Positions 1-39,448 of a DNA stretch of 58,349 nucleotides are shown here, one piece after another. This DNA is from Reclinomonas americana ATCC 50394. Its lineage: Eukaryota. Location: the NCBI GenBank assembly GCA_048213135.1, contig PS015039.1:279619-337967 (forward strand), read 5' to 3'. The position numbers and the translations under genes are program-made. The notes under the pieces are model-generated. The model was not told the DNA's origin and made no database searches. It was given only the letters and a program-made list of their open reading frames with translations. The stretch's first letter is position 1. Each line of letters begins with the position of its first letter.

Positions 1-61
1 CAGAGAGAGAGAGAGAGAGATACACTGTGGTGATGTGTGTGCTGATTGCGGGACGATGCAG

Positions 62-1753
62 AGTTCTTCCCCAAGTCGGATCCTCACTACGTGGCGGCCA
101 CTCACCTGCTGCGGCAAGTTGTACCGATTCTCAACAATGCCGCGCAGCGGTACGCACACATGCAGCAAGTGGAGTCGGCGGCCGCCAGTCCGTTGCGTCC
201 CTGCTTTGCATCGCGCTTGTGCCTGCGTGTATTGTCGTCTCATTTGTGCGGATTGGGTACAGTCTGCCTGGGCCATCCGGTTGCGTCGACATTTTGACTT
301 GCTGCGTTTGATTTTTTTGTTAATCCTAACTCACGTGCGAATCTTGTCGTTAGCAGTGGCAGATGCAGAGATGCCCTCGCTCCCTGTTCCAGGTGCGTGA
401 TTGTGGTGATGAAAGGAGTGATTTGTGGTAGCTCACCGGCAACGCATCTGCAGCTGTCCGAGAGATTATCGAGAGCGTCGATTCCGACACGGGTGAGTGG
501 CTGAGATTTACCGCTGCTCTCTCGCACTGATCCCTGCTGACCTTTCCCCGTCGCTGGCAGAGGGCACCGACTACGAGCGCGCCTTGCGCCGAACGGTGAC
601 GAAACTGCGCCGGTGAGTTGCCTTTGTTGTCTCCTTTCGTTGCATTCCTCACACGACTCATGACGTGCCCGCAGTCTCGATCGTCAAAAGTACTTTACGC
701 ACGCCGTGGTGACACGCGAGTATCCCGAGTACTACAAGGTCGGTTTCATTGTACCCGCCACATCCACCTGTTGTCTTTGTGCTCAACTGGTTGTTGTGCA
801 GCGCGTTTCGAAACCGGTGGACATTGGCACTGTGCTGCGTCGTGTTAACAAGGGTCGCTACAGCGACTACACCAGCTTTGTGGACGACGTGGTCTTGATT
901 AGCTCCAATGCCCTCTGTTGCGTCACAGTTGTTCACAATCGGTGCCTGTTGGTGCTGCTGACATGCCACTTGTGGTGTGCAGCGTTCTTCAGTCCCAACG
1001 AGGCTCGCTACCGTGCTGCTCGCCTTTTCTTCGAGGGCAGCATGCCCATTCTGGAGGAGGCGGCTCGAGAGTACGCACACCTGCCTGAGTTTGTGGGTGG
1101 TATGGACAAGGTCAAGAGGTTGCGTCACTTTTTCTTGTTTCGCCCGGGCAACGTAGCCGCGTGACTGATCGTATCGATTGTGTGCAGTGTTCTTGCTTCG
1201 CCACCGGATTCAATCGCACTGGCGCTGTTGGTGCCATCCATGGACGCGCCGCCGCCACCGCCACCGTTGCCAATGTCAGGTATGGGGTTTGACGAACACA
1301 TGTAGAGGGCTCCAATAGCGCAGAGTTCCAAGAATCACTCGTAGCATCTCACTTATCAGGAAACGGACAATGTCAATTCTGCTCTTCCCTTTTCCTTCCC
1401 CCTTCTCCTCCCCCNNNNNNNNNNNNNNNNNNNNNNNNNNNNNNNNNNNNNNNNNNNNNNNNNNNNNNNNNNNNNNNNNNNNNNNNNNNNNNNNNNNNNN
1501 NNNNNNNNNNNNNNNNNNNNNNNNNNNNNNNNNNNNNNNNNNNNNNNNNNNNNNNNNNNNNNNNNNNNNNNNNNNNNNNNNNNNNNNNNNNNNNNNNNNN
1601 NNNNNNNNNNNNNNNNNNNNNNNNNNNNNNNNNNNNNNNNNNNNNNNNNNNNNNNNNNNNNNNNNNNNNNNNNNNNNNNNNNNNNNNNNNNNNNNNNNNN
1701 NNNNNNNNNNNNNNNNNNNNNNNNNNNNNNNNNNNNNNNNTCCTACACATTTG

Positions 1754-1798
<45 letters not shown>

Positions 1799-4700
1799 CT
1801 TGTCACAGCCTTCTCCCCCGCCACCCCCAGAATGTCAAGCCGCGAGAGTCGCGACTCGCTGGGTGGTACGTTTGACTATTTTTGCGAGTGGGGTATTGCT
1901 CTCCCTCGAATGTGCTCATCATATCTGTCAACACAGGGCTGGAAGATCCCGCCAAGCCCAGGTCCGTGGCCGAGGACATTCTGAATCGCTGCTGGGAACG
2001 CATCAAGCGGTACGCTCTTCCGTCCCCCCCACACACTCGTGTCGTGTACTGTGGGATTGATCGCCTTCTTTTCCCCCCCGTTTCTCAGTTTCGACAAGGA
2101 TCGCTATTTTACGCACCCAGCCGAGAAGCGCCTGTATCCGCAGTACTACCAGCAGATCGCCACACCCAGTGATTTCCGCACCATTTGCACGCGCATCAAG
2201 CGTGGTCGCTATCCCAAGTTCCAGGCCTTCCAGACCGACATTCTCCTCATCTTCGACAATGCCATGTGTGAGTCGTGTGGATTCGCACGTTGCGCGCTCG
2301 GCTGTGACTCATTTCTCCTCTTGTGCAGCCTACTTCCCGCCGACTTCAGCGCAGTACATTGCGGCCGCCAAGATCCGTCCCATGGCCGTGAACATTCTCC
2401 AGCAGGCCAAAACAGAGTGGGACGAAGCACACAAGATCATCGATCCGAGTGCCATCACGAGTACCACGCCGTCGTCTGCTCGGTTCGTTGCACATACGTG
2501 TTCATCATTTCGCCTCCATTTTGTTGATTTTGTGTCTGCCGTCTGCAGCAAGGGTTCTGGATCCGATTCTGGAGTCTTGCAGTCGGCTCCGCTGCCGCTT
2601 CCTATCGGATGTGCGTCGTTTCTACGCCTTTTTCCCCACACAGAGACCGCTCACCGCGTCGTTGTTGTGTCGTGCGCAGTCAGCGAGCTGTCTATGGAAC
2701 AGCAGCAAGAGGCTCTCAGTGAGTCCCTCACCCATTTCCCACTCCTCTCGTCCACCATGTTGCTGACAGAAAACAATATGTGCAGACGCCGCAGTGCAAT
2801 GCATGCTTCAAAATGTTGACGGTGCGTATCAGTGGTGCTGTGTGCATGTGACGCTGTGTTTTTGCTCATCTGATGCCTTGTTTGTGACACAAGTAGCCGC
2901 GACCCTGGCCTCGATGAACAGTTGAGTGCAGATCGCACGCGTGTGTATATGAGTGCCATCAGAGTGCCCATCTTCTTACGCACTTGTTTGTTGTCGTGCA
3001 GTGAACCCGGATCTTGGTGTGTTTGAACGTGACATGCGCATGCTGATGTGCTCGATCCCTAACCCTTTTGTCGCATTCAAGCAGCCGCGCCGTTGCCGAC
3101 TCAGACCAGTTGCGTTTGAATCCTGTGGGTGTGCTTATTTTTTCCTCTCCATCTTCGGCAGCGTGTCGCCTTTCTCTGAATTACGTGGTGCAGCTCTTGT
3201 TTCTCCTTTTAATGTCTTCTCATCCTTTCTCTTGCATCTCCTCGCTCCCCTTGCGCTCACTCTATCCCGTCCACCACTTGCGCAGTCGAGGGTGTGCCGA
3301 TTACCGTCCCACTCCCCATGCCACCACCGCCGGATCTCACCGGCAGTGCGTCCGATCAACGTGCTGTCTCACAAGAGTGTCTATTCTGACATATTGTTCC
3401 ACCACAGTGGCCATCCCACCCACCGGTCCTCCATATGTCGACGTCCCTCCACGTGCGTCGTCGTCGCGTGTTCGTGTCTGTGCTGTCGTCAACTCTCGAC
3501 TGATTTCAATCATTCTTGCATTTTTCCAGTGCCCCCACCACCGCCGTCCTTGGACGACACTCCGGCGGCTGAAGGTGACGACGCTGCTGCCGCTGCTGCC
3601 ACATCCGCCGCGGCTGCGGCTGATTCCACGATGGGCCTGCTACCGCCTCCGCCGCCTCCACCGCCGCCGCCTCCTCCTCCACCACCTGCCGCGCTGGCCA
3701 TGTTGACCATGCTGCCGTTGTTGCAGTTACAGCAGAAGCGCCGGGAGAGCGAGGGCGGTGAGGAGATGGGAGTTGATCTGTCCTTGGTCGGTCTCCAGTT
3801 GCGTCATGTTCCCTCTCTGTTTGTGTTTTCGGTAGCTACTGGTCTCACTCGATGCTGGTGTGTTTCGTGCAGCGCTCTGACTTGTGCGTGCCAAGCGAAA
3901 TAGCATCGGTTCTTGTTGTTTTCCTTGTGCTCATGCTCTTCCTGTCACGCGCAGCGCGCATCCGCGATGACGATGCCGATGATTTGCAAGATGACAAGGC
4001 CATGCTGTTCCTGGACGATGAGGCTGACGAGAGTTACGTGCACACTGTTTCCCACCTTGCAACCATGTGCCTTCGCTCATTACACTCCCCGCTGCAGTGA
4101 GCGTCACGCAGAACATCTTCAGCCGCGCGCTCGCAGTCATGAAGCGGTTCGTCCATTTTTCTCCATTTTCATCAGCATCACCTGTCTCCTATTTGTGTTG
4201 TTCCTCTTGACCTATTCCCTCCTCTCCTTCTGCTCCCTCTTCCCTCTTCATCCTCATTATCTTACACATTTTCTTCTTGTCCTTCTTCGTTTTTTCTACT
4301 TCCTCTCTTTCTCTGCCTCTCCTGCCTCATCACCATCATCTCTCTCATTTCTTGTATTGCACCTCTTGCCCTTCTCCTTCTTCCTCGCCTTCTCCTTTTT
4401 CCTCGTCTCCTTTCTCGTTCTTCCTCCTTCTCTCTCGTTCTTCCCCTTCTCTCTCTTCGTTATCATCTTTTCACCTTTCTTCTTTGTTCCTCTTGTCCAT
4501 TTTCGTCTTTTTCTCTCCCTCTCCTTCATCATAATCATCATCATGTTTCTCATGTCTTGTGTTGTTCCTCTTGCCGTTCTCCTTCTTCCTCCTCGCTCTT
4601 CGTTATCATCATCTTTTCACCATTGTTCTGTTGTTCCTCTCGTTCGTCTCTGTCTTCTTCGTCTTCTTTCATTTCTGTCTCTGTTGTCTCTCCCTTCTCC

Positions 4701-6722
4701 TTGCCCCTCCCCTCACTCTCTCCTTCCCCCTATTCCCCCACGCGCAGCCAAGACCCGGAGAAGCACTTTACTGCACCGCTGCCGAAGCGCACCTACGCCG
4801 AATACTACCGGCGCATTCGCGTGCCGATGGACCTCGGCACCGTCACTCGCCGCGTCAAGAAGAACCGCTACAAGTCGTTCGAGGAGTTCCAGGCCGATGT
4901 GATGCGTGTCTTTGACAATGCGCAAAGCTTCTTCTCTGCCGGCGACCCCAAGTATGACACGGCGGTGCGCCTGCGTGCCGTCGCCACCTCCGCCCTCGCC
5001 ACGGCTCGTCATCAATTGGCGGCGGCCGGGCCGCAGAGTTTGCGGCAACAGCCGGTCGGGCCACTGGCAGAGTCACTCGAGTCCGCGTCACTCGAATCGC
5101 CGCCGGCCTCCAAGTCGACTCCGCGTGGACGCAAGAAGAAGACGTTTGCGATTGAGTGAGTGCCAAGTCATTTTTTCCCAGTTCTATGACTTGTGAGTTC
5201 GTTTCACTGACTGTGCGCATGCACAGATCACCTGGCCCACTGGATGTCAACTTGACCGAGTTCCAGTTGATTATGACGCGCCTGTTGGACCAGATGCGCG
5301 CCGCTGACGTGAACAAGTACTTTACGCGTGCCATCAAGAAGAATGCCATTGAAGGCTACTACGACAAAGTGCAGCAGCCGATGGATCTCAGTACCGTGCA
5401 GCGCCGAATCAACAAGCAGGCATACGATACGTTCGCGGCGTTCCGCGACGATGTCAATCTCATCTTCCAGAACGCCCTCTGTTGCGTCACGTGTTCCCCC
5501 CCCCCGCTGCACTGTGGGATCGGTCTCGTCTCATGTTGATTTTCGTTGGTGTATCGGCAGCGTTCTTCGCGCCAACACATGAGCGCTATGTGGCGGCCGT
5601 GCACATGCAGGCTTTCTGTCGAGCGCTGATGGACGGGACTGTGCACGAGCACGCAAACGAGGCTGGTTTCGCGTACCGCATGGAGTACGCGGTGCCGCCG
5701 GGCTCGCAGCGCAAGCCGTACATGTTTCGTTGGCATATCGTGTCTTTCCCTACTTTCTTGTCTTCGATACTCACGCGTGTTGGTGATGTCTCCATCATCA
5801 CAGGCGCAAGAATGGTCGCAAGTCTGGTGGTGGCGACGGCGACGGCGCCGACGATGATGATGATGATGACGACGACGAGGGAGATTCATCCGACAATGAC
5901 GAGGTGGAGAGATTCGGTGGCAAGCGCAGGCGTAGCCGCAAGTCCTCTCGTGACAACGACAGCGACGAGACCGAGGACGACGAACGGGAATCCTCCGGGC
6001 GTAAGAGTCAGTCGCGTCGCTCTGGCCTGCGCGCTCCCTCTCAGCGCCGTCAGACTCCCAAGGCTAGCAAGAAGACCGAAAAAGCGGACGATGTGACTGT
6101 TGAGCCGCCGCCGCTGCCATTCATGATACCGATGCCGATGTCGCTGTCACTGCCACTGCCGCCGCTGCCGCTTGATGGTGAGTGTCACAGCGACAGGAGT
6201 CTTTCGTCCTTTCCGCTTGTCTTTTGCCTCCATTCTGTTCTCAAATATCCATTGTCACGCAGTTGCACATCGCATGGACACTGACATTCCGGCTCCCGAG
6301 GAAGTGATGCCGCCGGACGATTTGCAGCAGTTCCTGGTGGATACGTTGAACGAAATCAAGCTCCTCGACCAGTCGGCGTTCTTCATGTCGGTCCCTGACA
6401 AGAACCGCCACGCCAACTACTACCTGCGTGTGCCGCAGCCCACCGATCTTCACACCATCATGCACCAGGCCATGGCACATCGGTATGCGACATTCGAGGA
6501 CTTCCGTGCCGATGTCATGCGCATATTTTCCGACGCGAGAGGTGAGACCAAGGAGAATCAGCGCCCCGCAGTCTGCCTTTGCTTTCTTCTCACCTGCGCC
6601 CTCTTGTTGTTGTTGTTGTAATAATAATAGTCGGTTTCGAGTCATCGGCGCCCGAGTTCAGTGCGGCCATCTCGCTGGAGGCTACTGTGGGAGATCTGCT
6701 GGCCAATCGCGCACATCGCATT
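62..6722 (+). CDS. Multi-bromodomain protein region (at least 6 bromodomains, Pro-rich and acidic linkers), 5' end outside the window; probably continuous with ORC2
   Basis: Spliced exons give repeated bromodomain motifs: YPEYYK|RVSKPVDIGTVLRRVNKGRY..NAL (~570-1070), YPQYYQQIATPSDFRTI..FDNAM (~1970-2430), YAEYYRRIRVPMDLGTV..FDNAQ (~4100-5010), GYYDKVQQPMDLSTV..FQNAL (~5260-5640), NYYLRVPQPTDLHTI..FSDAR (~6320-6710), plus the C-terminal helix of another repeat at 62-150. Linker exon boundaries are approximate. Confidence 0.9.
4148..4747 (+). repeat. Pyrimidine (CT)-rich low-complexity intron splitting bromodomain 4
   Basis: GTTCGT donor after ..VMKR and CAG acceptor before QDPEKHF. The intervening ~600 bp is almost all C/T on the + strand. 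Confidence 0.8.
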
Positions 6723-6852
6723 GTTCGTCGCGCCGATCGCCGAGGTGGGGGGTTTCATTTCACGCATTTTTGTGCTCGATCTTGTGTCGATACTCNNNNN
6801 NNNNNNNNNNNNNNNNNNNNNNNNNNNNNNNNNNNNNNNNNNNNNNNNGCAG

Positions 6853-9255
6853 ATGCTCGAGGCGGAGCTGGCCAAGGCTGCTTCGCAAGTGCAGGAGCAA
6901 GCGGCCGCGCTGACCGCCGGCAACAAGCAGGAGATGTTTGACCGATGGTCCGCTGACTTGAGGTGTGTCCCTGGTCAGGCGCCTTCAAATGAGCAGTAAA
7001 CTAGAAGCCTGCTTTTTTCTCTCTTTCCGCCGAGCTCTGCTCTTTTTGCTTTTGTTCATTTGTGTGTTTTGTGTGCGTTTGTGTTTCTCTCCGCGCGTAG
7101 ACGGCACAATGTTCTCGTGTACGGATACGGCTCCAAGCGGGCGCTGTTGGAGGAGTTTGCGCAACACAGCGCTGCCGCCGCCTTCCATGTCGTCGCCGTC
7201 AATGGGCTTGTCCGTACCGTCGGAAAGCAGGTGCTTTTGTTTGCGTCGCGCATTTTCGAACGCCCAACGAATGCTGACGAAAGTGGCCACTCGATGCACA
7301 GCTGTTTTCGATGTTGGCCGACCAAGTCAGAGTTCCCGTGCATGCCGATCCAATGATCACCGCCACTCGCGTGTGTGATGCTCTCCTGGCCCCGATCGAC
7401 GGAGCCCCACAGCCGGCTGGTTTGTGGCCCCCTTCGCCTGCATTTAGCTGCTTGCACGATACTTAATGTTGCGGCACCTGCACTCGTAGGTCCTTCGGCA
7501 CAGTACGACAGCCTGCAAGCCGAGTTGGTGGCCATTCACCAACAGCTCACCGGTGCGTATTGTTGTTGAATATCTATCCGTGTTCTTCTCGGCTGGTGTT
7601 CACTCTTATGTGTTGCAGTCGACATGGACCGCCTGGCGAGTCAGCGTCGCAGTGGTGCGGATGGCGATGACGACGGTGAGGATGAGGAGGAGGACGANNN
7701 NNNNNNNNNNNNNNNNNNNNNNNNNNNNNNNNNNNNNNNNNNNNNNNNNNNNNNNNNNNNNNNNNNNNNNNNNNNNNNNNNNNNNNNNNNNNNNNNNNNN
7801 NNNNNNNNNNNNNNNNNNNNNNNNNNNNNNNNNNNNNNNNNNNNNNNNNNNNNNNNNNNNNNNNNNNNNNNNNNNNNNNNNNNNNNNNNNNNNNNNNNNN
7901 NNNNNNNNNNNNNNNNNNNNNNNNNNNNNNNNNNNNNNNNNNNNNNNNNNNNNNNNNNNNNNNNNNNNNNNNNNNNNNNNNNNNNNNNNNNNNNNNNNNN
8001 NNNNNNNNNNNNNNNNNNNNNNNNNNNNNNNNNNNNNNNNNNNNNNNNNNNNNNNNNNNNNNNNNNNNNNNNNNNNNNNNNNNNNNNNNNNNNNNNNNNN
8101 NNNNNNNNNNNNNNNNNNNNNNNNNNNNNNNNNNNNNNNNNNNNNNNNNNNNNNNNNNNNNNNNNNNNNNNNNNNNNNNNNNNNNNNNNNNNNNNNNNNN
8201 NNNNNNNNNNNNNNNNNNNNNNNNNNNNNNNNNNNNNNNNNNNNNNNNNNNNNNNNNNNNNNNNNNNNNNNNNNNNNNNNNNNNNNNNNNNNNNNNNNNN
8301 NNNNNNNNNNNNNNNNNNNNNNNNNNNNNNNNNNNNNNNNNNNNNGGAGGATGAGGACGACGAGGACGGCAAGGATGCTGAGGATCGAGCACGGGAGCGT
8401 GTGCACAGGCTGCAGCTGCTAGAGTCGGCACACTTGCGCGAACGCAAGGACCTGTTGTTGGTGATCCACAACTTGGACGGCGACGGCCTTCGCAGTCGCT
8501 CTATCGAGGCCGCGCTGGTGCGCCTGGCCACGTGCCCGCGGGTGCACCTGTTGGCCAGCATCGACAATGTCAACAGTGGCCTGAGTTGCGACAGAGTGAG
8601 AGAGTGAGAGGTCTGTTGGCAGTTACTGATGATTGATGCTGGCAGTCTTCGAGTCGGGCAACTGGCACCGCGGTCACTGGGTGTGCCACCACGTCGACAC
8701 CTTCCAGCCGTACACGGCCGAGCTCGGTCGGGAATGGGCCGTGCATTTCACTGCGGCTCCGGAAACCAAGAGCGGGTGCGGTTATTCGTTGTTTCTGCAG
8801 CGCGCTGCTGCCATGTAGCTGATGACTGTTGCTCGTGCGTGCGACACCACCACACAGCGGTGGCGCCAGTCGTGTGTTGGCCACCCTCACGCCAAACCAC
8901 CGAAAGATCTTCCGTGCGCTGCTGGAGATGCTCCGCGAACAAGTGGGTGATGGTCACGAGACAAAAGATGTGGGCGGTGAGAAAAGCGCATGGTGTATGA
9001 TGGTTCTTCTTCTTCTTCTTCTTCTTCGACGGCTCATTCGTGTGCCGTGCAGTGGACTACGCCGAATTCCTGGAACGGTGTCGTGCTCAATTCACCGTGA
9101 CCAGCAGCCGCGATCTGGATACGAAGCTGCGCGAGTTTCTCGATCACAAGATGGTGGCCAAGCGCACGGCGCGCAACGGACGTGCAACGTTGTTCGTGCT
9201 GCTGCCACGTGGCGAGCTCGAGGATGTGGAGGCCACACTCAACGACAATCGATAA
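6853..9255 (+). CDS. ORC2: Origin recognition complex subunit 2 domain (multi-exon, N gap inside)
   Basis: ORC2 motifs in order: FDRWSADLR|RHNVLVYGYGSKRALLEEF, LLLVIHNLDG..LR..LASIDNVN, WVCHHVDTFQPYTAE, VLATLTPNHRKIF, CRAQFTVTSSRDLDTKLREFLDHKMV; TAA ends at 9255. Confidence 0.93.
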
Positions 9256-9356
9256 AGTAAAACAATAACAACCAATACCAATGATTTCTTCACTCTTTTC
9301 TCGCACCCTCCCTCCTTCTTTCCTTGCCAACCAGAAGCACACATGCCAACATGTAG

Positions 9357-10515
9357 CTACCTTGGAGACGCAATAATGTGGTCCAGTGCCCGTTGCTTGT
9401 CAAAGTCACATCTGGCGAGTGCGTCCAGCACCTGATTTGGGGAAAATCTGTGCGACGAGAAGAACGAGAATCAGCTTCTCGACCACGTGCATGCAACTGG
9501 CAGCACCGACGACGAACGCACCCCATGGAGCACAGCTCGGTATGCGACGACAACATGACACGCATTCTTGTCACGTCCCCTGGCGGCGCTACTGCCGCGA
9601 CCACTTCACACGTCTGCCGATCGTATCCCTCGCGACATAGTGTGTTCACCAGGTCGGCATACGCCGCCGATGTCACCACCACAGACGACGACTCCGAGTA
9701 GGCAGGCGGTGGCGGATAGTTGGCGTACTCGTTGGCGGCACCGGAGGGTGCCGCCGGACGTGCCGCCGCCGCTGGCTGGGGGTACCTGGAAAAGTCCGCC
9801 AAATCGACGACTGCCAGCGATGGCGGCTGGTACGGTGGTGGTGGTGGGTCGGCCGCAGGCAGCCGGAATGCAGGCACCGCTGGTGCCGGCATCGCAGGCA
9901 TCACGGGAGCAGGAGCAGGAGCAGGAGCGATGGCAGGCGGCGCTGATCCCGCCACAGGAAATGAGAGGAACGACGCCGGCAACCCGCCGGGTGTCTCTTC
10001 ATCGGCGCCACCCAATTCGATGCCAGAGTGTGCGGGAGGTGGTATTTGGTGCTGTTGCTGTTGCTGTTGCTGCTGAGGAGGAAAAGGTGGAGGCAGAGGC
10101 TGGAGTCGCGGTGGCTGCGGCGGCGGCTGCTGTTGTTGTTGTTGTTGCTGTACCATTACCGGCGGCAAGTCCACCGCGGGGAAGTCCTGCTCTTGCGCAA
10201 ACGGGTTTGGCGGCGGTGTCCGCGGCACGGGTGACCTCGGTGGTGACCGAGGATACACAATGGGCGCCACCGATTGCAACTGAGGAGCGAAGAATAGAGA
10301 CGAGGCGGAAAAACAGCAACGGAGAAGAGGGGGTGGCATGAGTGTACGTTCTCTCTCTTTCTTCCCACTCGTCACCAAACCTTGGCTTGCGCCTCGAGTT
10401 CACGCGTCTCCTTCTCCAGCTGCCGAGTGTTGAGTTTCTCCAGAATCGCATCCTCTGACGACGTGTCAAACGGAGTCCGGATGGAGCGCACGTCCACATT
10501 GTGCATCGTAGGCAA
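9357..10515 (-). CDS. UBAP1-like ESCRT-I subunit (UMA-like segment, Pro/Gln-rich linker, C-terminal UBA/SOUBA-like helices); 5' exon not located
   Basis: Exon 10381-10515 LPTMHNVDVRSIRTPFDTSSEDAILEKL resembles the UMA yDFslE motif. C-terminus LVNTLCREGYDRQ..ELCSMG|FSPNQVLDALARCDFDKQRALDHII* is UBA-like. Confidence 0.6.
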
Positions 10516-15328: not shown

Positions 15329-16460
15329 TCAACGACGAACTTGGTGGCGCTCCAGTGACTTGCTCTTGTAGTCACTGATGAATTGGCGCAGGTAGTTGGA
15401 AGTGACGTCGCCCTCGCGTGCCGGCTTGTAGAACGAAGCGCTGTCACCCTGCAGTACGTGAAGGCACAGCCGTGGTCAGCCTGACGAAGAAGCACGTTGT
15501 GCAGAGAGCTGCACTCACCAGATCCAGCAAGACCAGCTGCGGGACGCCTTCAGACTTGCCGAGGTTGGCCAATTTGCGCACCTGTTCACCGACATGTCCC
15601 GATTCGGTGGCGTAGTAAAAGAGCATCGAGCGAGAGGCGAGTCGACCAGCAGACTGCACATGGTGGTGAGACGTATAATAGGCTATAGCGCCAACTGTGC
15701 TATGTGCACGCGTATACCTTGTCCTCCATCAGCACCTCCTTGGCGATCTCCGACAGCGCCGCTTTCAGTTTGTGCTGCTGATCGGCATCCACATCCTCCA
15801 TGAAGAGCATCATGGTGGGAGTGCGATTGACATCGCCAAGTTCGCCACCGTCCAACTCGCTTGCCGGGATCGGATAGTACGGGAACCCCGCAGCACCGTG
15901 AGCCTGTGTACGTGAGATCGTGTAAGTCGTCGCAGTGGGGGAAACTGGAGACTTCGAACTCAACGCACCCGCACAGCACCGGCGGCAGCAGAGTTGACCA
16001 CGTGCATGTCCTCGTCTGTAATATGCAATAGTGAGCGTGTATGGAAAACGGAGAGCACTTCTCCCCTCTTCTGCAACAAGTGCGCACCGAGAATGACAAG
16101 TGACGGAATGCCGGTGATTTCGAACCGCTCTTGCAGCAGGCCAATGCGGTCATCTCCGCGCGGGATGGCCAACCATGGCATTGTCGCTGTGATTCAATGC
16201 ATGAGTACCAACCACGACGTGCACACACACTTCTCCCTGGAAGACAAACCAAGGTACTCCTCAAACTCCTCGTCGCTGCGGTCGACAGAGACGAACACCA
16301 CCTCGAACGGCCTGCACAGAAGACAAGTCAGCATTTCCGCTGCTTCACTTCCTCCACACCTTATAACACGAGCACGCAACTTNNNNNNNNNNNNNNNNNN
16401 NNNNNNNNNNNNNNNNNNNNNNNNNNNNCGTACGTACGTACGTACGTACGTACGTAGTAG

Positions 16461-16505
<45 letters not shown>

Positions 16506-17664
16506 GACAGTGTGTGTATGTGAGAGAGAGAAGAGAGTTATTACGCAACTGACGCTCGGTGGGCACCAGTGGCCGCTGAAGTACAGTCCGAGATACTTGC
16601 CGGAAATGGCATGGCGATCGACAGTCTGACCGTGCTTGTTGACGAATGACGAGCCGACGCAGTCCGACAGCGTTGGTGGGTACCTACACGCATCTTGATG
16701 AGCGGCAAGGTGCACGCACGGGCAGTGACGCGAGAGAAACGGGCGCACCAAGGGAACTTCTCGCCTTGCGGATCTGACGTGACGTGCGTGCGGCCTGTGT
16801 TGTCATTAAGTGAGGCAGCTGCAAGGAAGCTGTGACTTCACTCTCCCTCTCCCCTCTCTCCTCTCTCTCCCTCTTGTAAATACAGACACTCGAACATCAA
16901 TGCATCGACCATACTCACCCTTGGTCGTGATGAGCTCGCCGTTGGGCGACAAAATCACCAGCGTTGGGATGCCGCTGACATTGTACTTGGCGGAGATCGC
17001 TCGGCCACGGGCGCGATCCGCGTACGGCAGCGCAATCCACGGATGCTCCGCAAAGTAGTCACTGTGGACGACAACTATATTGAGAAGACATCGATGCAGC
17101 TGTTTTGTCCGCAGCTGCGCGTTTATTCAAGCGGTTCTTGTCCCGTGGCCCACACAGACAAAGAGCGATGCGCAACTTGAATTCCTCCTCGTCGTTGTCA
17201 CTGGAGATGAAGACGATCTGCGAAAGAGCGAGTGTGAGAGAGTGAAAAGCGTCGGACATCAATATATGAGTGATACACCTCAAAACCCTTGTTGGCCGCC
17301 TTGAATGCGTTGTACACCTCGGCGAGCTTGGGGGTGAACACGCGGCTCGGAGGGCACCTGTCGTGCAACAGAGAGTGAGTGAGTCCGTGGACACGAAGAG
17401 GATGCGCTGCGCATCTCGAGCTCGCTGTCGAACTCACCAGTGGCCACTGAAGAACAGACCCTGTGTGTGCGTGATGCAGGCACAAAGAGAGAGGGAGGGA
17501 GAGAGCAGAGAGCAGAGAGCAGAGAGTGTGAGTGTGCGCTGCGTGTGAGAGATCTGGACAGGTGACGCAACAACAGCGGTGCAGTCTTTCAGTGCCTCGT
17601 CGGTGCTCATTGTGCCATTGTGAGTCAACAACATCGGGCCAAGGAGTTCGATAAATGCGGCCAT
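15329..17664 (-). CDS. Nucleoredoxin-like protein (two tryparedoxin-like thioredoxin domains plus a C-terminal domain), both sites WCPPS
   Basis: GLFFSGHW|CPPSRVFTPKLAEVY, IVFISSDNDEEEF, PWIALPY..GIPTLVIL, DPQGEKFPW; second domain YLGLYFSGHWCPPS, FEVVFVSVDRSDEEFEEY, MPWLAIP..GIPSLVIL; ends LRQFISDYKSKSLERHQVRR*. Confidence 0.9.
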
Positions 17665-17844
17665 GGTGGTGGAAGAGGGAGAGGTGGTTCTCTGTGCTCA
17701 GAAGAAGACAGCGGAAAAATGATTGTCGTGTCTCATCACGGTGTCCGCCATTTTATTTGTGTCCAGTCGATATTCTTAGGCTTCCAGTTCCTCTGTCTCT
17801 GTCTCTCTCTCCTCAGCGAGATAGTTATCTCTTGTTAACTCTCC

Positions 17845-18345
17845 TCTTCCATCATCGACATCGTGCACGCAGTACGCGGACGATCCGCTGGACCACAATT
17901 GCATCGGTGATCAATTTCGAACTCGCGCGCTGTTGCAATTGGCTGGCGCCGGCGCCGTGTGGGTTGCAGTTGCATGTCTTCGTCGCAAGCAACACCATCT
18001 ACTGATAGACCCACGACGTGTAGTTCTCACTCTCAACAGGAGCGGAGGCTTGCTTGAACTCTCTCTGATTTATTGTCGGCATGAGCAAACGACGCTTGTA
18101 GTTACATCTCTCCCGACAAACATGTAGCCCGTGTCATTCATCGTCGGCATCATGCACGCAGTACGCGTACGACCCGCTGGACCACCTCTGCGTCGATGAC
18201 CGACATTCCAAACCCGCTGTCCGCTGAAACTGCAGCGTGTGTGTGGGTTTCAAGTCACCACCACCAGCAGGCTGACCGAGGCCACAAGCAACACCATCCA
18301 CTGAAAGACCCACAACGTGTAGCTCTCACCACCAGCAGCAGCGGT
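17845..18345. repeat. Degenerate tandem duplication of the PDI-like gene's 3' end (~17845-18045 copies ~18135-18345)
   Basis: Shared blocks TGCACGCAGTACGCG.ACGA.CCGCTGGACCAC and CAAGCAACACCATC.ACTGA.AGACCCAC.ACGTGTAG. The copy has TAG where the gene has a Trp (TGG) codon. Confidence 0.8.
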
Positions 18346-21303: not shown

Positions 21304-24300
21304 ATGGGTCTTGATATCGATCTTTTCCGAGTGCGTTGTCTCTTCTTCTCTCACTGACACGCTGTTTTACACAAGCTGACTTGCACTTTTGTGTCATCAT
21401 GGTTTGTCAGGTTGACAAGGGTGGCAATCCCGATCTGGTGCGTGAGTCGCAGCGGCGGCGACACAAGGATGTGACGCTGGTCGATCAGGTCGTGGAGACC
21501 GACACTGAGTGGAGGAGAAGTTGCGCAACATGTGCACATGTCACTCACCACGCACCTCCCACTCTCTCTGCGGCCACCATCTCTCCGCGCTGCTTCCTCT
21601 GCCTTGGGTGTGCATCTCTCTCTTGTGTGTGTGTGTATTGTTCTCACTGTGCGCACANNNNNNNNNNNNNNNNNNNNNNNNNNNNNNNNNNNNNNNNNNN
21701 NNNNNNNNNNNNNNNNNNNNNNNNNNNNNNNNNNNNNNNNNNNNNNNNNNNNNNNNNNNNNNNNNNNNNNNNNNNNNNNNNNNNNNNNNNNNNNNNNNNN
21801 NNNNNNNNNNNNNNNNNNNNNNNNNNNNNNNNNNNNNNNNNNNNNNNNNNNNNNNNNNNNNNNNNNNNNNNNNNNNNNNNNNNNNNNNNNNNNNNNNNNN
21901 NNNNNNNNNNNNNNNNNNNNNNNNNNNNNNNNNNNNNNNNNNNNNNNNNNNNNNNNNNNNNNNNNNNNNNNNNNNNNNNNNNNNNNNNNNNNNNNNNNNN
22001 NNNNNNNNNNNNNNNNNNNNNNNNNNNNNNNNNNNNNNNNNNNNNNNNNNNNNNNNNNNNNNNNNNNNNNNNNNNNNNNNNNNNNNNNNNNNNNNNNNNN
22101 NNNNNNNNNNNNNNNNNNNNNNNNNNNNNNNNNNNNNNNNNNNNNNNNNNNNNNNNNNNNNNNNNNNNNNNNNNNNNNNNNNNNNNNNNNNNNNNNNNNN
22201 NNNNNNNNNNNNNNNNNNNNNNNNNNNNNNNNNNNNNNNNNNNNNNNNNNNNNNNNNNNNNNNNNNNNNNNNNNNNNNNNNNNNNNNNNNNNNNNNNNNN
22301 NNNNNNNNNNNNNNNNNNNNNNNNNNNNNNNNNNNNNNNNNNNNNNNNNNNNNNNNNNNNNNNNNNNNNNNNNNNNNNNNNNNNNNNNNNNNNNNNNNNN
22401 NNNNNNNNNNNNNNNNNNNNNNNNNNNNNNNNNNNNNNNNNNNNNNNNNNNNNNNNNNNNNNNNNNNNNNNNNNNNNNNNNNNNNNNNNNNNNNNNNNNN
22501 NNNNNNNNNNNNNNNNNNNNNNNNNNNNNNNNNNNNNNNNNNNNNNNNNNNNNNAGATAGAGTAGGGAGAGACAACTGATCCCCATCGCCCAGTCAGTGT
22601 GATTGATCACCTTCTTCTTGGCGCCGACAGTCTTCGACACCAGATTAGCAGCCTTGCGCAGGCTGTCAATGTAGCCCGTGACTGCGACAAGCAGAGTGAG
22701 TTGAGAGAGAGAAGTTCCGACATGCCAGCCCACACCGTGCTCACACTTGAGCTCTTTCTCATCANNNNNNNNNNNNNNNNNNNNCCGGCCACCTGCACGA
22801 AAACAATCGCGTTTTTGAACGAATGTGAACATGCATGCAAGGAGCATGGGAGCAAGCGAGACCTTGCGACCCCGATCGAGGTCCATGCCGTCCAGCGCCG
22901 TGAGCAGCTCCACATGGTTGAAGGGCGCCTGCGGCTTCTCAATCTCTCCCCACGTGCGCAGCGTGCGGTTGTCATCCTCGTTGATCGACACTGGCACGCT
23001 CTCGTGCACAATGTTGCCAATCATGCCCAGCGCACGATCCCTCTGCGCCTCCAGCTCCTCCTGTCGCACCACGCTCTGCTTCTCCATCTCCTTCAACACT
23101 GCACGATGCGACTCGTGGTGAGAGTGAGCTCCTTCCCCTCGCACACACAAGGCAGGCGTGACAACGAACCGGGCGACAGCGTCTTCAGCTGGTTGACGCT
23201 GAGGCGGGCAAGCACCTCCTGCGTCACCGTGTCCACCTGCTCAATGATCTCCTGCGGCACTGGGTCGCTGGTGCCATCCTCTTCCCTGGCCTGCGTGCAT
23301 GAACGGAAAGTGAGTGGATGGGAGAGAAGGGGGGAAGGNNNNNNNNNNNNNNNNNNNNNNNNNNNNNNNNNNNNNNNNNNNNNNNNNNNNNNNNNNNNNN
23401 NNNNNNNNNNNNNNNNNNNNNNNNNNNNNNNNNNNNNNNNNNNNNNNNNNNNNNNNNNNNNNNNNNNNNNNNNNNNNNNNNNNNNNNNNNNNNNNNNNNN
23501 NNNNNNNNNNNNNNNNNNNNNNNNNNNNNNNNNNNNNNNNNNNNNNNNNNNNNNNNNNNNNNNNNNNNNNNNNNNNNNNNNNNNNNNNNNNNNNNNNNNN
23601 NNNNNNNNNNNNNNNNNNNNNNNNNNNNNNNNNNNNNNNNNNNNNNNNNNNNNNNNNNNNNNNNNNTGGTCGTGCGTACTTCCTCAAGAACGGCGCCGTG
23701 AGACTGCAGCTGGCACTCATCAACTACGCTGTCAACTTTTTGGTCACCCGCGGCTACACACCGATGTACACGCCGTTCTTCATGCTCAAGAGCGCCATGG
23801 CTCAGGTGGCACAGCTGGAGCAGTTCGACGAGGAGCTGTACAAGGTGACGGGTGAGGGCGACGACAAGTACCTCATTGCCACGTCGGAGCAGACCATTTG
23901 CGGCTACTTTGCCAAGGAGTGGATGGACCCGAAGGAGTTGCCGCTGCGGTGAGCCACATATCCCTTTACATTTTTCAAGTTCCGTGAGATGGTGTTTATT
24001 GACGAGGACGCATGGTGCAGCATTGCGGGCATGTCGACATGCTTCCGCAAGGAGGTCGGCAGCCACGGCAGGGACACACTCGGCATTTTCCGCGTCCACC
24101 AGTTCGAGAAGATTGAGCAGTTTGTGGTGTGCTCGCCGACCGAGTCGTGGGAGATTATGGACACGATGATTGCGAACTCGGAGGCCTTCTACCAGTCGGT
24201 TCGTGAGCGAACAAGCATATGTCCACTTGTTCTCTCGGGTGTCCTGATACAGCGATGTGCACAGCTCGGCCTTCCCTACCGCGTGGTCAGCATTGTCAGC

Positions 24301-24812
24301 GGTGCGCTGAACAACGCGGCCGCCATGAAGTTCGATTTGGAGGCCCTCTTCCCGGCGTCGCAAAAGTTCCGCGAGCTCGTGTCGTGCTCGAACTGCACCG
24401 ACTACCAGGCGCGCCATGTGGAGTGCCGCTTTGGTCTCGGCAAGAAGGTGCTGCTCGCCTCGCTTTTCACACACTTCCCACGCACTTGTCACTCACCCCT
24501 GTAACCTCTCAGACTGCCACCGGCCCCAAGGAGTACGTGCACATGCTCAACTCGACGCTGTGCGCGCTGACTCGCACCATTTGCTGCATCTGCGAGAACT
24601 TCCAGGAGGAGACTGGTGTGCGCGTCCCGGAGGTGCTCGTGCCGTACATGAATGGCCAGACGTTCCTCGAGTTCAAGACCAAGCCGGTGAAGATTGAGGT
24701 GCGTTCACTCCCTTCCGCATGATCCACGAGAGAGAATGTGAGTCTCACAGAGTTTATCTGTCGGCAGGAACCGGCGGTGGCACCTGGCGAAGGCCCGTCG
24801 GCACCGCAGTAA
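21304..24812 (+). CDS. SARS1: Cytosolic seryl-tRNA synthetase; exons in 22555-23338 lie on contigs assembled in reverse orientation
   Basis: [38 protein letters not shown] (minus-strand contig); [86 protein letters not shown]. Confidence 0.97.
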
Positions 24813-32679: not shown

Positions 32680-35600
32680 TCAGCGCCGAGTCTTCGGCGA
32701 CGACTGGGGCAGCAACGAAATGTCGGCGAATCCGCAGTTCTTGCACGCGGAGAGGCCATGGTGTGCGATCTCATCGCGGCATTCGATGGGAATCGCGGTC
32801 TGCGTGTTGCCGCAACGTGGGTTCGTGTGCCACTTGCGACCGGTTGGAGTACGGTAGATGACGATGGCCGGGCGCGACGGTGGTGTCATGGGAGTTGTCG
32901 GCTGCTCCGGCAAGCGGGCTGCCGGTGCCGGCGACGTGACCACTGTCACACGAGTTTAGCAAGTGAAAAATACGCAGCAAGANNNNNNNNNNNNNNNNNN
33001 NNNNNNNNNNNNNNNNNNNNNNNNNNNNNNNNNNNNNNNNNNNNNNNNNNNNNNNNNNNNNNNNNNNNNNNNNNNNNNNNNNNNNNNNNNNNNNNNNNNN
33101 NNNNNNNNNNNNNNNNNNNNNNNNNNNNNNNNNNNNNNNNNNNNNNNNNNNNNNNNNNNNNNGCACACACAGAATGTAGAGATTACGAAACTGGTGGTGG
33201 CGACACTGGCACTGCGACGGCCCTCCTCCAGCTCGGCCCTCATGCGACGCTCCTCTTCCAGCTCAGCCTTCATGCGATCGTACTCGCTCTTCCACGAGTG
33301 TGCAATCTCTACCGCTTCCTCTGCACACACACGCACACGTAAGGTGCCTGAATGCCAATCAAAGAATTGGTATACACGCACTGTGGCGACGGCGGAGTTC
33401 GATGTTCTCTGCCGAGACTTCGCGGACACGGCCTGCATCGTTTGCCAGTGAGCGCGTGGATCGCAGTAAAGAGAACATCGACGAATTAGCATCACATACC
33501 ACGCTGCGTCTCAAGATCGGCACCTGCCTCCGTCGCGCGCACTGCAAAGGTAAGCACATTCAGCAACCGACCGTCTACCTGCACAAACCCCGAGACACCA
33601 ACCCTTCCACATTTCGGCATGCTGCTTGGCCTCATCTGTATGGTTGCACGCCATCATTAGACAAAGAGAGTTGGACACGGGATAACTGCGACCGCCTGTG
33701 GGCCAACGCACCACGGTCGCGGACGAGATCTTCTTGACGAGCTGCGCCACCAGCACACGCCCCGTGTTAGTCATCTGTTGCATGCATGCATGCATGAGAG
33801 AGCGTGCGGAGACTGCTCACCTTGCGACGCCTCGTAATTCTCAGTGATTTTGGCAAGTTGCGCTGTTGGGGAGTACACGTGGTTGGCAAGAAGGAAACCA
33901 CAAGGAACAACAGCCAGTTATGCGGGACGCACACTTCAGCACTTGCTCCTCGGCTGTTTCGCAATCGAGAGGAAGTGACAGCTAAGAATCCAAAAGAGCA
34001 ACGAAAGAGCACGCCTGACATCAACATACCACGCCNNNNNNNNNNNNNNNNNNNNNNNNNNNNNNNNNNNNNNNNNNNNNNNNNNNCTCAAGAGAACAGT
34101 GAGCTCCGTCACCTTGTGCAAGCGCTCCGCGACGAGGTGGAGATTCTGCATGCGACTGTGGCCATGCATCAGCATCAGGAGCAAGGTGCGGTACTGATTC
34201 GCTGCACCGTTGGTGACGAGTAACTCGGCTCACCTTGGTGTCGCGTGTTCGGCGAATAGATAATTCGCGAAGGCACACTGGTGCATTAGTGCTGCGTTAA
34301 TCGTGAGACATGATGTGTTGTCCTGCTCACCGATTCTGTTCTATACAGAGATCCTGGCGTCACTGCAGGAGCGCTTGCTGCAGGCCGAGGGTGCGTGACA
34401 GGCAGCTGGGGATTCCATTCGTTTCCATGTACTGATACTGGTCGATGTACAGGGTCTGTGGAGCGCAAGAATCGCGAGAACGATGATCTGCAGCGTTGCG
34501 TGTGCCTGTTGCCATGAGCCGCCCAGATTGACGCACTTGGTTGGCTCTAACATGTCCTTATGCCGCTGCAGACCGCCTGGCGCAGTCTGAAACAGAAGTG
34601 CGCGACCTGAAAGGTACATACATATACGTGTGCGTGTACCGCCAGTCCGTACTCTCGTCTGCTCACTCACCTCGACTCTCACAGCCGAGCTGGAGACCGT
34701 CATTCGTAATCNNNNNNNNNNNNNNNNNNNNTAAGCTGGCGGACCTGTGATAGTCGACAGAGGAGGGTTGAACGCGCTGGGCTCATTCTGCAACAAAAGC
34801 TTTCTGCAATACCGCACCTCGGTCTGCCACAAACATACACGCACATATATAAGGATGAGACAAAATAAAAAGTTGCTTCAAAGTCGGCGACTGCCAAACT
34901 CACCCTCGCCATCTCCGCCACCGTAATCTGCATCGGTCGTCACAGCTGGTGGGCAACAAAAATGCACACGGCAACAAGCGATGAACAACACTCACCGTCT
35001 TGCGAGTAGCTGGAGAGCTCGCAGCCTGCGCCAAGTCACGGTCCTGCAAACACGCATTTCTCAGAAAAGTGCGATGAGAAACAGGGAGAGAGAGGTGCGT
35101 GGACGAACCAGTGTGCGCTGACGCTGCACCGCAGCACCGCTTGCTGAGCGAACACGTGGCTGTGCGCAACACAAGCTGCATGAGCAACATTTACGCTGCG
35201 CACCGAAAGACACCCACGTACCGAGCGACGGACAGTGTTTGTCGCAGTCGGCGAGATCTCCATGGTGTTGGCCTGTGGCTCGCCAGTATAAGCGCACACA
35301 TCACATGCACCATGGATCCGACTCCGACAACTCACCGCCGCATCGTCCATCGGTTCACCGACGACACTACCCGAGCGAGAAATGGACACGAAGCGCTGCA
35401 CATCCATGGCACGCGGATCAATGCTGACGCAGAAAACCTGCCACATCGCGCGCGCGTGAGCCAGAGACTTCACGGAAAGGAGAGAAGCGCACAGGGATGC
35501 ACACCGTCTGCACTCGAGGCATCGGCTCGTTGACAAAGCCGGTGAGCAGACGCATGACATCGTGGCGGAATGGACGGTTGGCCTCCGTCTGCGCCTCGTG

Positions 35601-37030
35601 CATGCGGTGCACCTCGTAGAACAGTTCCGCACGGAACGCACTGTCGGCTCCTGCAATGGTGGATGAGCATCGTGCCACACGACCGCGTCGATGACAACAA
35701 GTAGAGACACACCATCTGTGTCGCACACCACGAGATCACTGATTGTTGTGCCGCGCTGGTCCATGTCGGCACTCGTCACTGCAGAGCGATGTGAATGGAG
35801 AGAAGAGTATCGCGATACCGCGTGTCGTGCGTACACAACTCTCAAAGCGCACAGTCACCACGCGATGACGCAGGTGTGCCGTGCGACCGAGCGGTCCGCG
35901 CTTCTGCACGCCAATCTGGCGGATGAGGCTGCGCACACCCGACCAACATCATGATCAGCAACTCGCTTGTCTAATAGGTCTGCGCGACAATCTACCGACC
36001 TCTTTGCCGTCTTGGGAGTCAGCGAGGTGAACTCGACGACCGCTGCCTCTCGTGCGCCCTTGTGCACAAAGGCAGGCCACTCGGCTGAGCTCAGCACCGG
36101 GCGCACCGGAACAAACGGCAGCTCATCCTGCAGCAATGACGAATAAGAAGAACACCGGGCGCCCCCTCACACTACCAGCAGCACCGCATGCGCACCTGCT
36201 GCCCGATGGTCAGGAGCTCGTAGGAGAAGCGCGAGGGCTGACCGACAGCATCGACTGCCAGCACCGACACCTGCTCACACATGCATCAGCTCACAAGTGT
36301 ACAGCCCACACCGACAAGAGCTCCCCCCCATGTGTACGCAACGCTCTGCACGCGCTCCGACGCCAGCATGCGATCCACAATCCGGCAGACGACTCCTGCA
36401 TCCGGCTGACCCACTGCTCCATACAACTGATCGGTCTTGCCCGTGCGGACTCCACCAATGCTCATCAGCATGACACGGGCCGGTTCTGCAGCACAAAGCC
36501 ACTCGACAGAGCGCGTCACCAGTGCCTGCCGGTCGGTATGCACGAATGCGGGAGGAGGAGAAGACGATGAGGAAGGAGATGATTGCATTGGCGCGAAAAT
36601 CACAAAATGCACATTATGTTCCGCAACTGTGGCATCGTCGGCCTCGTCGGTGGTCTTGTGTGCCGGGGAGACCCACATGTGCAGGTGCGGGCACTCTGGA
36701 ACCTCCAATAGCTCGCCCATGTGTTGCTGCGCTGTCAACTCCTTCTGCGAACCAATGGAACATGTGCGACTGACGTGCTTATTGCGACGCACAGAGTCGC
36801 GGACGTGAGTGGGTGGGCGGTCGAGCGCAGCCATCTCCACCTTGGTGCGGCGGCTGGGAGTGAGAGACTGTGCACAAGTGTGAGTGCAATAGGGGACATG
36901 GCATGTCGAGTGCGTGCAGTGCCCGCGAAACTTGCATCATTGCCGGGCGAAGTGGGGAGCGGTTGTTGGGGCTGGCCATCGGCGCATTAGCGGCGGCAGA
37001 GAGCGGCGACGAGTCACTCGCGGAGGCCAT
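32680..37030 (-). CDS. Degenerate kinesin-motor-like P-loop protein + coiled coil + C-terminal Ada-like Zn-binding motif, copy 1 (34087-34711 assembled inverted)
   Basis: VMLMSIGGVRTGKTDQLYG..AGVVCRIVDRML fits kinesin TIFAYGQTGSGKT.TM.G..GIIPR; RPFRHDVMRLLTGF resembles HIPFRDSKLTRLL; heptad exons follow; tail IYRTPTGRKWHTNPRC..GLSACKNC. Confidence 0.65.
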
Positions 37031-37210: not shown

Positions 37211-39412
37211 TCAACGTCGACGCCGAGGCAGTGAATCAAGGACGCGGGAATCCCAACAGTGCGTGCACGTGTCGGCACTCGCGATCTCGTCACGGCAAGT
37301 GATCGTGACGGGAATCGGGTGCCTCGTGTTGCGACAATCCGGAATCATGTGGTACTTGCTGCCGTATTGAGTGAAGTAGACTTCCACAGCCTCTTCCTCC
37401 TCCTCGTCATCCGAGCCGTACTCCCGCTGCTCGCGATCGGCTAGCGCTCTTGTAGGACGCTCCTCGCTCAGCTTCGTCTTCGTGCGTCGGTACTTGCTCT
37501 TCCACAAACGTGCCTCGTTCCCTGCCTCCACTGCATGCACACACACATGAGGTTCCTGTCCTGGGTAAATGCGGAAGACAGTTGTTACGCACGAAGACGA
37601 CAATAGAGATCGTCGCTCTCTTCTGTGAGTCTGTGGACATCAGCGGCGCTGTCTTCAGCCTGCTGTACGGCAAAATCTGAATGGTTATAAATCCACACAT
37701 CAGGCATGAATCGAAAGCTGAGGAACGACTCGCGCACGCGCAGGTGCGGGCACACCTCGTTCACGGGCGAGATTCAGCAGTCGCGCTGTACCACAAACAC
37801 ATATCCAAGTTGGCCATCCGTACGCGTTACGTGAACTTGATAGTAAAGTGTGTGGGAAGTACGCACCTTGCGACGCCTCACGCTCCTTGGCGGCTTGGGC
37901 CAGTCGCGCTGTGGTGAGTACACGTGATGCGCTTTAGTCGAACGCATACAAGGAACAGAGCAATATAATAAAAACAGTTTCGCGACGCGCAACACACACA
38001 GACCATTCAGCTCGCGAACTTCCGATTCTTGACGTGCTGTTCCAACATAATTATAAGACACATGCACGTTAGTGGTCTGTTGCATGCAAGCCGACTGCGT
38101 GCACGAGGTGCTCACCTTGCGACGCTTCACGCTCCTGGGCGGCTTGGACCAGCTGCGCTGTGGGAGTACACGTGATACGCGTTAGTCATGCGCACGAACA
38201 CAGCACCAATAACTTCGCGGAGGCGAAGTACACGCAGACCTTGTTGCAGCCTGTGCACATACGACTTGAATTGCTCTGACAGGTCCATGTTGGCGGACAG
38301 TTGCATGCAAAACAAAGCGCGTGCGGCAAGTACGCACCTTGCAACGCCTCACGCTCCTGGGCGGCTTGGACCAGCTGCGCTGTGGGAGTACACGTGATAC
38401 GCGTTAGTCATGCGCACGAACACAGCACCAATAACTTCGCGGAGGCGAAGTACACGCAGACCTTGTTGCAGCCTGTGTACATACGACTTGAATTGCTCTG
38501 ACAGGTCCATGTTGGCGGACAGTTGCATGCAAAACAAAGCGCGTGCGGCAAGCTTAAGTACGCACCTTGCAACGCCTCACGCTCCTTGGCGGCTTGGGCC
38601 AGTCGCGCTGTGGGGAGTACACGTGATGCGCTTTAGTCGAACGCATGCATGGAACAGAGCAACAATTGTTTCGCGACGCGCAACACACGCAGACCATTCA
38701 GCTCGCGCACTTCCGACTCGGATTTCTTCTGACGCACTGCACCAACACAGACACACATGCACGTGAGTGGTCTGTTGCATGCAAGCCAGACTGCGTGCGC
38801 GAGATGCTCACCTTGTGACGCCTCACGCTCGTTGGCGGCTTGGGCCAGTTGTGCTGTGGGGAGTACACGTGATACGCTTTAGTCGAACGCATGCATGGAA
38901 CAGAGCAACAATAGCTTCGCGACGCGCAACACACACACACACCATTCAGCTCGCGAACTTCCGATTCTTTACGTGCTGTTCCAACATAAGACACACATGC
39001 ACGTTAGTGGTCCGTTGCATGCAAGCCAGACTGCGTGCGGCAGTACGCACCTTGCGACGCCTCACGCTCCTTGGCGGCTTGGGCCAGTCGCGCTGTGGGG
39101 AGTACACGTGATGCGCTTTAGTCGAACGCATGCATGGAACAGAGCAACAATTGTTTCGCGACGCGCAACACACACAGACCATTCAGCTCGCGAACTTCCG
39201 ACTCGGATTTCTTCTGACGCACTGCACCAACACAGACACACATGCACGTGAGTGGTCTGTTGCATGCAAGCCAGACTGCGTGCACGAGGTGCTCACCTTG
39301 TGACGCCTCACGCTCGTTGGCGGCTTGGGCCAGTTGTGCTGTGGGGAGTACACGTGATACGCTTTAGTCGAACGCATGCATGGAACAGAGCAACAATTAT
39401 TTCGCGAGGCGC

Positions 39413-39448
<36 letters not shown>

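Follow-up and report, generated by a model that had tools for sequence, protein, structure and literature searches.

We analysed 58,349 nucleotides (nt) of the Reclinomonas americana ATCC 50394 genome (assembly GCA_048213135.1, contig PS015039.1, positions 279,619 to 337,967 of the forward strand; hereafter the window, numbered from its first letter), in which an array of at least six bromodomains is followed on the same strand by ORC2, which encodes an origin recognition complex (ORC) subunit. As judged from the sequence, the array and ORC2 may form a single gene, joined either directly or via an exon hidden in an assembly gap; we give this a probability of about 0.55. Taken as it was assembled, the sequence is most simply read as an in-frame join of position 6722 to position 6853 (6722^6853). 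The sequence itself shows the domains, the arrangement of the exons, the open frame and, on either side of the gap, features like those of splice sites and introns.

The evidence for a join comes from the junction. The last bromodomain exon (6631-6722) ends with ATT at 6722, in phase 0 and with no stop codon, and GTTCGT follows from 6723. This candidate donor opens 73 nt of intron-like sequence (6723-6795) that lead into a run of 53 N (6796-6848), after which a candidate acceptor, GCAG (6849-6852), stands directly before an ATG at 6853, from where the ORC2 frame is in phase 0. A preliminary description of this DNA had proposed an in-frame fusion from the missing stop, the GTTCGT at 6723, a CAG acceptor at 6850-6852, a phase 0 to phase 0 join and 53 Ns in the junction, and each of these was found at its place. 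It had also placed other GTTCGT donors at 4148 and 24198; two such donors exist, but they start at 4147 and 24199. When splice-site matrices were built from 31 curated introns, the donor at 6723 scored 4.1, compared with 0.7-7.6 (median 4.7) for the curated donors, nine of which scored lower, and of the window's other GT sites (3,363) only 6.2% equalled or exceeded this score. GCAG is the commonest acceptor form: it closes 19 of the 31 curated introns, and CAG is the ending of 28. An alternative frame-keeping donor after 6743 (GTGGGG) scored -2.7, below all 31 curated donors, and was rejected. In addition, 25 of the 31 curated introns are 61-89 nt long (the others are 138-601 nt); the known non-coding bases of the junction number 77, and together with a small gap they would make an intron within or near that range.

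Base composition also pointed to an intron. The stretch 6723-6795 has fractions of A and T of 0.11 and 0.34, and the corresponding values are 0.13 and 0.36 for the pooled introns, 0.20 and 0.20 for the bromodomain exons, 0.31 and 0.27 for the 3' flank of ORC2, and 0.27 and 0.20 for the single head-to-tail spacer that was measured. This intron-like composition suggests that the sixth bromodomain exon precedes an intron and hence that the bromodomain gene continues downstream. The bromodomain frame is open as far as the gap; the same 73 nt are stop-free in all three frames, which is unusual even among introns (3 of 31) and was treated as neutral. If the gap is roughly as long as annotated, there is one gene, because a stop exon and 3' end followed by a spacer and a promoter would not fit. 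The donor, the composition, the acceptor and the phases thus fit the in-frame fusion first proposed, but the junction lies in a gap and an N-terminal block that is usual in ORC2 was not found.

For the upstream part of the putative gene, exon chains were assembled by listing the GT..AG pairs that join evidently coding stretches without closing the frame; the window is rich in very short introns and belongs to a draft scaffold. The bromodomain chain from 454 to 6722 comprises 25 exons and 1,092 residues with zero stops, and an extra exon (62-187) lies further upstream. When 10 open reading frame (ORF) pieces were scanned with Pfam, the Bromodomain family (PF00439, cut-off 21.7 bits) was above its cut-off in five of them (664-1161, 1985-2524, 4143-5156, 5156-5536 and 6127-6618; 33.7-62.8 bits). 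When a hidden Markov model (HMM) made from these five bromodomains was run on the spliced chain, it recognised just five domains, with none in the middle part of the chain. The first copy, a, is partial: its last exon (62-187, plus strand), which encodes the C-terminal helices, is what the window holds of it, and the gene extends beyond the 5' window edge. Alone, copy a gave no Pfam match; its positions 64-186 align with the helices at the C-terminal end of the remaining five copies, and its ORF (from 46) matched the five-copy HMM with an E value of 9.5e-07 although it had been excluded from the building of that model. The count is five complete, Pfam-supported bromodomains plus one cut by the window edge, in line with the at least six of the preliminary description, and more may lie upstream.

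The five complete copies follow on the plus strand. Bromodomain b (561-1118) is encoded by four exons (561-612, 675-738, 802-916 and 983-1118; 37.3 bits in ORF 664-1161; HMM domain 1 of 5), and c (1937-2482) by three (1937-2009, 2089-2267 and 2329-2482; 43.7 bits in ORF 1985-2524; HMM domain 2 of 5). They are followed by a Pro/Ala-rich linker made of small exons (2549-4032) with no recognisable domain: no Pfam family was found in 2061-2816 or 2953-3900, and the bromodomain HMM had no match in chain residues 307-553 (about 250 residues). The choice of exons is least certain in this linker. Bromodomain d (4098-5155; exons 4098-4146 and 4748-5155; 57.4 bits) is split by a 601-nt, CT-rich, low-complexity intron (4147-4747) that is fully sequenced and about eight times as long as is usual locally. 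Next come bromodomain e (5227-5717; exons 5227-5480 and 5561-5717; 62.8 bits; HMM domain 4 of 5), a highly charged linker exon (5804-6177) whose translation shows runs of acidic residues and patches of basic Arg/Lys/Ser (Pfam found no family in 5353-6093), and bromodomain f (6263-6722; exons 6263-6541 and 6631-6722; 33.7 bits), the last copy. On the minus strand beneath the locus, no Pfam family was above its cut-off in nine ORF pieces. The bromodomain repeats have intron positions in common, suggesting that a unit already atypical was duplicated in tandem.

The atypical feature concerns the Asn that anchors acetyl-lysine, the N of the BC-loop 'YN' (column 2 of the tail alignment): in each of the six bromodomains, Phe stands in its place. 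A residue alignment paired 'sff' of the window with 'tyn', 'ryn' and 'hyn' of bromodomains 2-4 of polybromo-1 (PBRM1) and with 'syy' of its bromodomain 1; PBRM1 bromodomains 2-5 have the YN Asn where the window copies have Phe, and bromodomain 1 alone is also aromatic there. Atypical bromodomains that lack this Asn exist. At the level of sequence, the replacement would weaken the description 'acetyl-lysine reader' and not membership of the fold, and acetyl-lysine reading cannot be assumed; the term 'reader array', used in the preliminary description, is therefore an assumption.

Downstream of the array, eight visible exons of ORC2 occupy 6853-9255 on the same strand. The first (6853-6962) starts with the ATG, ends five residues past the conserved F..W motif and corresponds to positions 63 onward of the 370 positions of an HMM built from 20 ORC2 proteins. 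Exons 7101-7230, 7302-7419, 7490-7552 and 7619-7697 follow (Pfam RecA-like_ORC2, 38 bits, 7000-7353), and after a gap of 648 N (7698-8345) exons 8346-8584, 8646-8775, 8858-8976 and 9053-9255 carry RecA-like_ORC2 (55.7 bits) and WHD_ORC2 (51.2 bits) and end with the stop codon TAA (9253-9255). Both ORC2 domains, the RecA-like domain (PF04084) and the winged helix (PF24882), are thus present, in order and in one reading-frame chain, and the spliced model scored 218 bits (E value 1e-68, positions 63-362) with the ORC2 HMM. An Asp/Glu-rich insertion (7619-8400) separates the two halves of the RecA-like domain; the 648-N gap lies within it, with Asp/Glu-rich coding sequence on both flanks, probably because an acidic repeat broke the assembly.

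Several observations weigh against a single gene, beginning with the junction. The curated introns were partly picked for good splice sites, so that the matrices are somewhat circular, and a direct join would leave zero linker between the last bromodomain helix and ORC2. Furthermore, the first ORC2 exon opens with an ATG, as would fit a start codon. One can therefore imagine two genes with almost no spacer, in which the bromodomain frame reads past 6722 to a stop in the gap and ORC2 starts at 6853, the two being overlapping transcription units or an operon-like pair in which the AG serves as a trans-splice acceptor. The read-through frame is indeed stop-free for 24 codons up to the gap. The genome is also compact: the ORC2 stop lies about 100 nt from the end of a minus-strand ORF (stop 9357-9359) that has no Pfam support, and the close facing ends at 9256-9359 suggest very short or overlapping 3' ends. 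However, the 73 nt past 6722 are intron-like and not coding-like in composition, and a GCAG just ahead of a start codon would have to be a coincidence. A start at 6853 would leave 31 residues ahead of the Trp of the conserved F..W motif, and in the 60 of 76 homologues that have a Met start and the conserved Trp, the residues before this Trp number 26-432 (median 168.5), with 31 or fewer in only one of the 60 and 50 or fewer in three. The ATG at 6853 has C at -3 and C at +4, a context that differs from those of three other starts in the window, which all have G at +4 and no AG just upstream (n = 3, starts inferred). The ATG at 6853 is therefore a poor candidate for the true ORC2 start.

The spacer that such a pair would need is short as well. 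If ORC2 started at 6853, less than 57 nt would be left for a spacer, compared with about 585 nt in the one head-to-tail pair measured, on the minus strand, where the stop of a gene with a thioredoxin domain is at 18250 and the inferred ATG of the next gene at 17664. This value comes from a single pair read by eye, because an exon-chain gene finder run for window-wide spacers merged nearly everything into giant genes with both of two parameter sets and was discarded. Moreover, no Rfam family was found in the window, spliced-leader RNA included, which is weak evidence against trans-splicing. We consider two genes with a near-zero spacer very unlikely. The pair itself (window 15700-18252, minus strand) consists of a thioredoxin-domain gene with a C-terminal hydrophobic tail, followed by a gene of repeated Thioredoxin_8 (nucleoredoxin-like) units.

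A second difficulty for the single gene is found in the N-terminal part of ORC2. Canonical ORC2 usually has a block, YF…TS..TL..L.P.L, 34-57 residues before the Trp, with key residues in about 48-54 of 76 homologues. The block was found neither in the ORC2 model nor, credibly, in the six frames of the sequenced window; when an HMM of the block was used, its second half alone gave a weak match (E value 1.2) in exon 6853-6962 and its first half gave nothing credible. The sequenced part of the window therefore departs from canonical ORC2 in having no such block, in addition to having the acidic insertion with its 648-N gap, whereas the RecA-like domain and the winged helix are complete in both. 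Either the lineage lost the block, or the exon that encodes it sits in the junction gap, which would then be longer than 53 nt. Coding sequence may thus be hidden in the junction gap.

What may be hidden there could also be a gene boundary. In that case there would be two genes, with the 53-N gap badly underestimated or a small contig missing; within the gap, the bromodomain gene would come to its final exon and stop, and after a spacer ORC2 would truly begin, with one or more exons that include the YF…TS..TL block, and GCAG at 6849-6852 would be a real acceptor, of an ORC2 intron. The failure to find the block in the model or in the sequenced window favours this arrangement, as does the expectation of ORC2 coding sequence upstream of 6853, an N-terminus as short as the one starting there being found in one of 60 homologues. 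For this arrangement, though, a true gap length of about 600-900 nt or more would be needed where 53 is annotated (exons and an intron in addition to a spacer of about 585 nt), and donor and acceptor would agree in phase by chance, as happens one time in three.

The reliability of the assembly bears directly on this point, since the junction sits within an assembly gap. The window contains 16 N runs in 58 kb, the largest of 941 N, and one scaffolding error was recognised in an essential gene, that for seryl-tRNA synthetase. An N-terminal piece of this enzyme (21399-21657, inferred ATG at 21399) and a core piece (within 23667-24722) are on the plus strand; 22860-23108, on the minus strand, corresponds to residues 96-163 of 6gir_A, and 23668-23949, on the plus strand, to residues 168-260. 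Because consecutive segments of the enzyme lie on opposite strands, the scaffold evidently contains the contig 22785-23338, which has a gap on each side, in inverted orientation. The solved seryl-tRNA synthetases nearest to that of the window are plant, Naegleria and trypanosome enzymes. Given the inverted contig, neither gap lengths nor the placement of small contigs can be trusted, and this proven error, together with the missing block, makes a wrong gap more plausible than usual. On the other hand, gaps of up to 941 N are reported in the same assembly, and large gaps are thus not systematically collapsed. Weighing these points, we regard a boundary hidden in the gap as less likely than a single gene, but as its main rival.

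The misoriented small contig also raises the question of whether the bromodomain contig (1741-6795) truly adjoins the ORC2 contig (6849-7697) at all. The latter is only 849 nt long, but it is correctly ordered and oriented relative to the contig that bears the C-terminal half of ORC2, and a random join is unlikely to pair the 5' part of an intron-like sequence with a phase-matched consensus acceptor. A scaffolding artefact of this kind seems to us highly improbable.

We then looked for the same architecture in other organisms. A HMMER scan with the 66-residue ORC2 exon against 1.84 billion representatives gave 194 matches, of which the best had 59% identity over about 45 residues and none was near-identical. 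Of 150 listed ORC2 homologues, 85 were scanned with Pfam (the 9 longest and 76 others of at least 300 amino acids, the 65 shorter ones being left out), and a bromodomain was found in 0 of these 85, none of which is a close relative. Similarly, the bromodomain HMM derived from the window had 0 matches in 80 metagenomic ORC2 loci (802 kb, 34 of them with at least 2 kb upstream), a weak negative as these loci have at most 54% identity and include no close relatives; the same HMM detected a canonical BET protein at an E value of 1.3e-20. Word-index searches gave no match with the ORC2 exon and three with the ORC2 alignment, none bearing a bromodomain (both weak evidence), and the bromodomain exon retrieved one distant insect BET protein. 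The ESM Atlas returned ORC2 fragment clusters only. In a FastTree phylogeny of 93 ORC2 cores, a very long branch leads to the window protein, which groups in one clade with sequences of oomycetes and basidiomycetes (support 0.886). The preliminary description knew of no bromodomain-bearing ORC2, and none was found among the 85 homologues and the 80 metagenomic loci. Likewise, no bromodomain-ORC2 fusion appeared in the titles and abstract openings of the literature searched, and in the available part of a survey of ORC evolution (PMC7058166) the word 'bromodomain' occurs 0 times and accessory domains are treated for ORC1 only. Since no relative with this architecture was found, a fusion starts from a modest prior, and this negative result counts in favour of a hidden gene boundary.

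Other N-terminal additions to ORC2 were found. In 3 of the 85 homologues, PHD and/or BAH domains stand ahead of the ORC2 core: two environmental proteins (P0028 and P0038) and one from Salpingoeca helianthica (P0128). The last (EP00048_P004774, 848 amino acids) is a complete transcriptome ORF, which places the BAH/PHD-ORC2 fusion on one mRNA. In addition, the word-index search retrieved a gene model from Monosiga brevicollis (MONBRDRAFT_26897, P0159; 821 amino acids) with BAH and ORC2. No description of these four proteins was found in the literature searched. They contradict the preliminary statement that chromatin readers in ORC sit on ORC1. C2H2 fingers (Cyanophora), ORC_WH_C (Tribonema) and HSP70 (Gossypium) were also found combined with ORC2, and these combinations may be merged gene models; the HSP70-ORC2 model of Gossypium, which we infer to be a merger of neighbours, is a precedent for two genes with a concealed boundary. 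On the evidence of these sequences, ORC2 appears to tolerate long N-terminal additions, reader modules included, a point in favour of the fusion.

The upstream half of the putative gene most resembles polybromo-1 (PBRM1/BAF180, a PBAF subunit), which likewise has at least six tandem bromodomains with linkers. Polybromo-1 (7y8r_U) was also the best solved match of the bromodomain that was tested (d), with 115 bits over six stretches compared with 52 for the next protein. In PBRM1, however, two BAH domains and an HMG box follow the array, whereas in the window ORC2 follows instead. No BAH or HMG family was found at E values up to 0.1 in all plus-strand ORF pieces of 46-9257, where only Bromodomain and ORC2 families were above cut-off. 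With no BAH or HMG after the array, this is not a standard polybromo.

For the downstream half, the nearest parallel is with the BAH/PHD-ORC2 proteins of choanoflagellates and environmental samples, in which a reader-type module is N-terminal to a complete ORC2 core in one polypeptide. These proteins have one to three BAH/PHD modules compared with the six bromodomains here, are uncharacterised, and are not close to the ORC2 of the window. The BAH domain of ORC1 (with PHD added in green plants) is a histone-reading module on an ORC subunit and contributes to positioning the complex on chromatin (PMC7058166); it differs from the window in both the subunit and the reader fold.

If the array and ORC2 are one gene, the GTTCGT donor after 6722 would serve to splice the last bromodomain exon to the coding exons of ORC2, either directly, at the GCAG acceptor that precedes 6853, or by way of a short exon concealed in the gap. 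We infer this joining in mRNA, as well as any chromatin-binding role. The product predicted from the window would have about 1,500 residues or more, with tandem bromodomains and, between them, disordered linkers (Pro/Ala-rich and highly charged) in its N-terminal part, and a complete ORC2 core at its C-terminus. The core would enter ORC as usual, and the long N-terminal arm might tether the complex to chromatin, by analogy with the BAH domain in ORC1 and with the BAH/PHD modules that choanoflagellate ORC2 carries. We see about even chances that the organism has an ORC2 of more than 1,500 residues with a polybromo-like arm of at least six atypical (Asn-to-Phe) bromodomains, the ligand of which is possibly not acetyl-lysine.

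In eukaryotes whose origins are not sequence-specific, ORC is held to find them largely through chromatin contacts, the textbook reader being the BAH domain of ORC1. A fusion in R. americana would amount to an experiment of nature, with a multivalent chromatin-binding arm built permanently into an ORC subunit other than ORC1. It would place bromodomains on an ORC subunit not known to have them, and would not be a new category beside ORC1-BAH, plant ORC1-PHD and BAH/PHD-ORC2. Taken with the BAH/PHD-ORC2 proteins, it would suggest that reader modules have repeatedly been attached at the N-terminus of ORC2. If the genes are separate, they are an ordinary pair of neighbours merged by an assembly gap.

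Elsewhere in the window, a direct duplication was observed (35359-36254 and 41696-42603), its copies lying about 6.34 kb apart with 92-98% identity over 300-nt reference stretches. Between the two copies (38097-40441) lie tandem and dispersed repeats of 222-300 nt.

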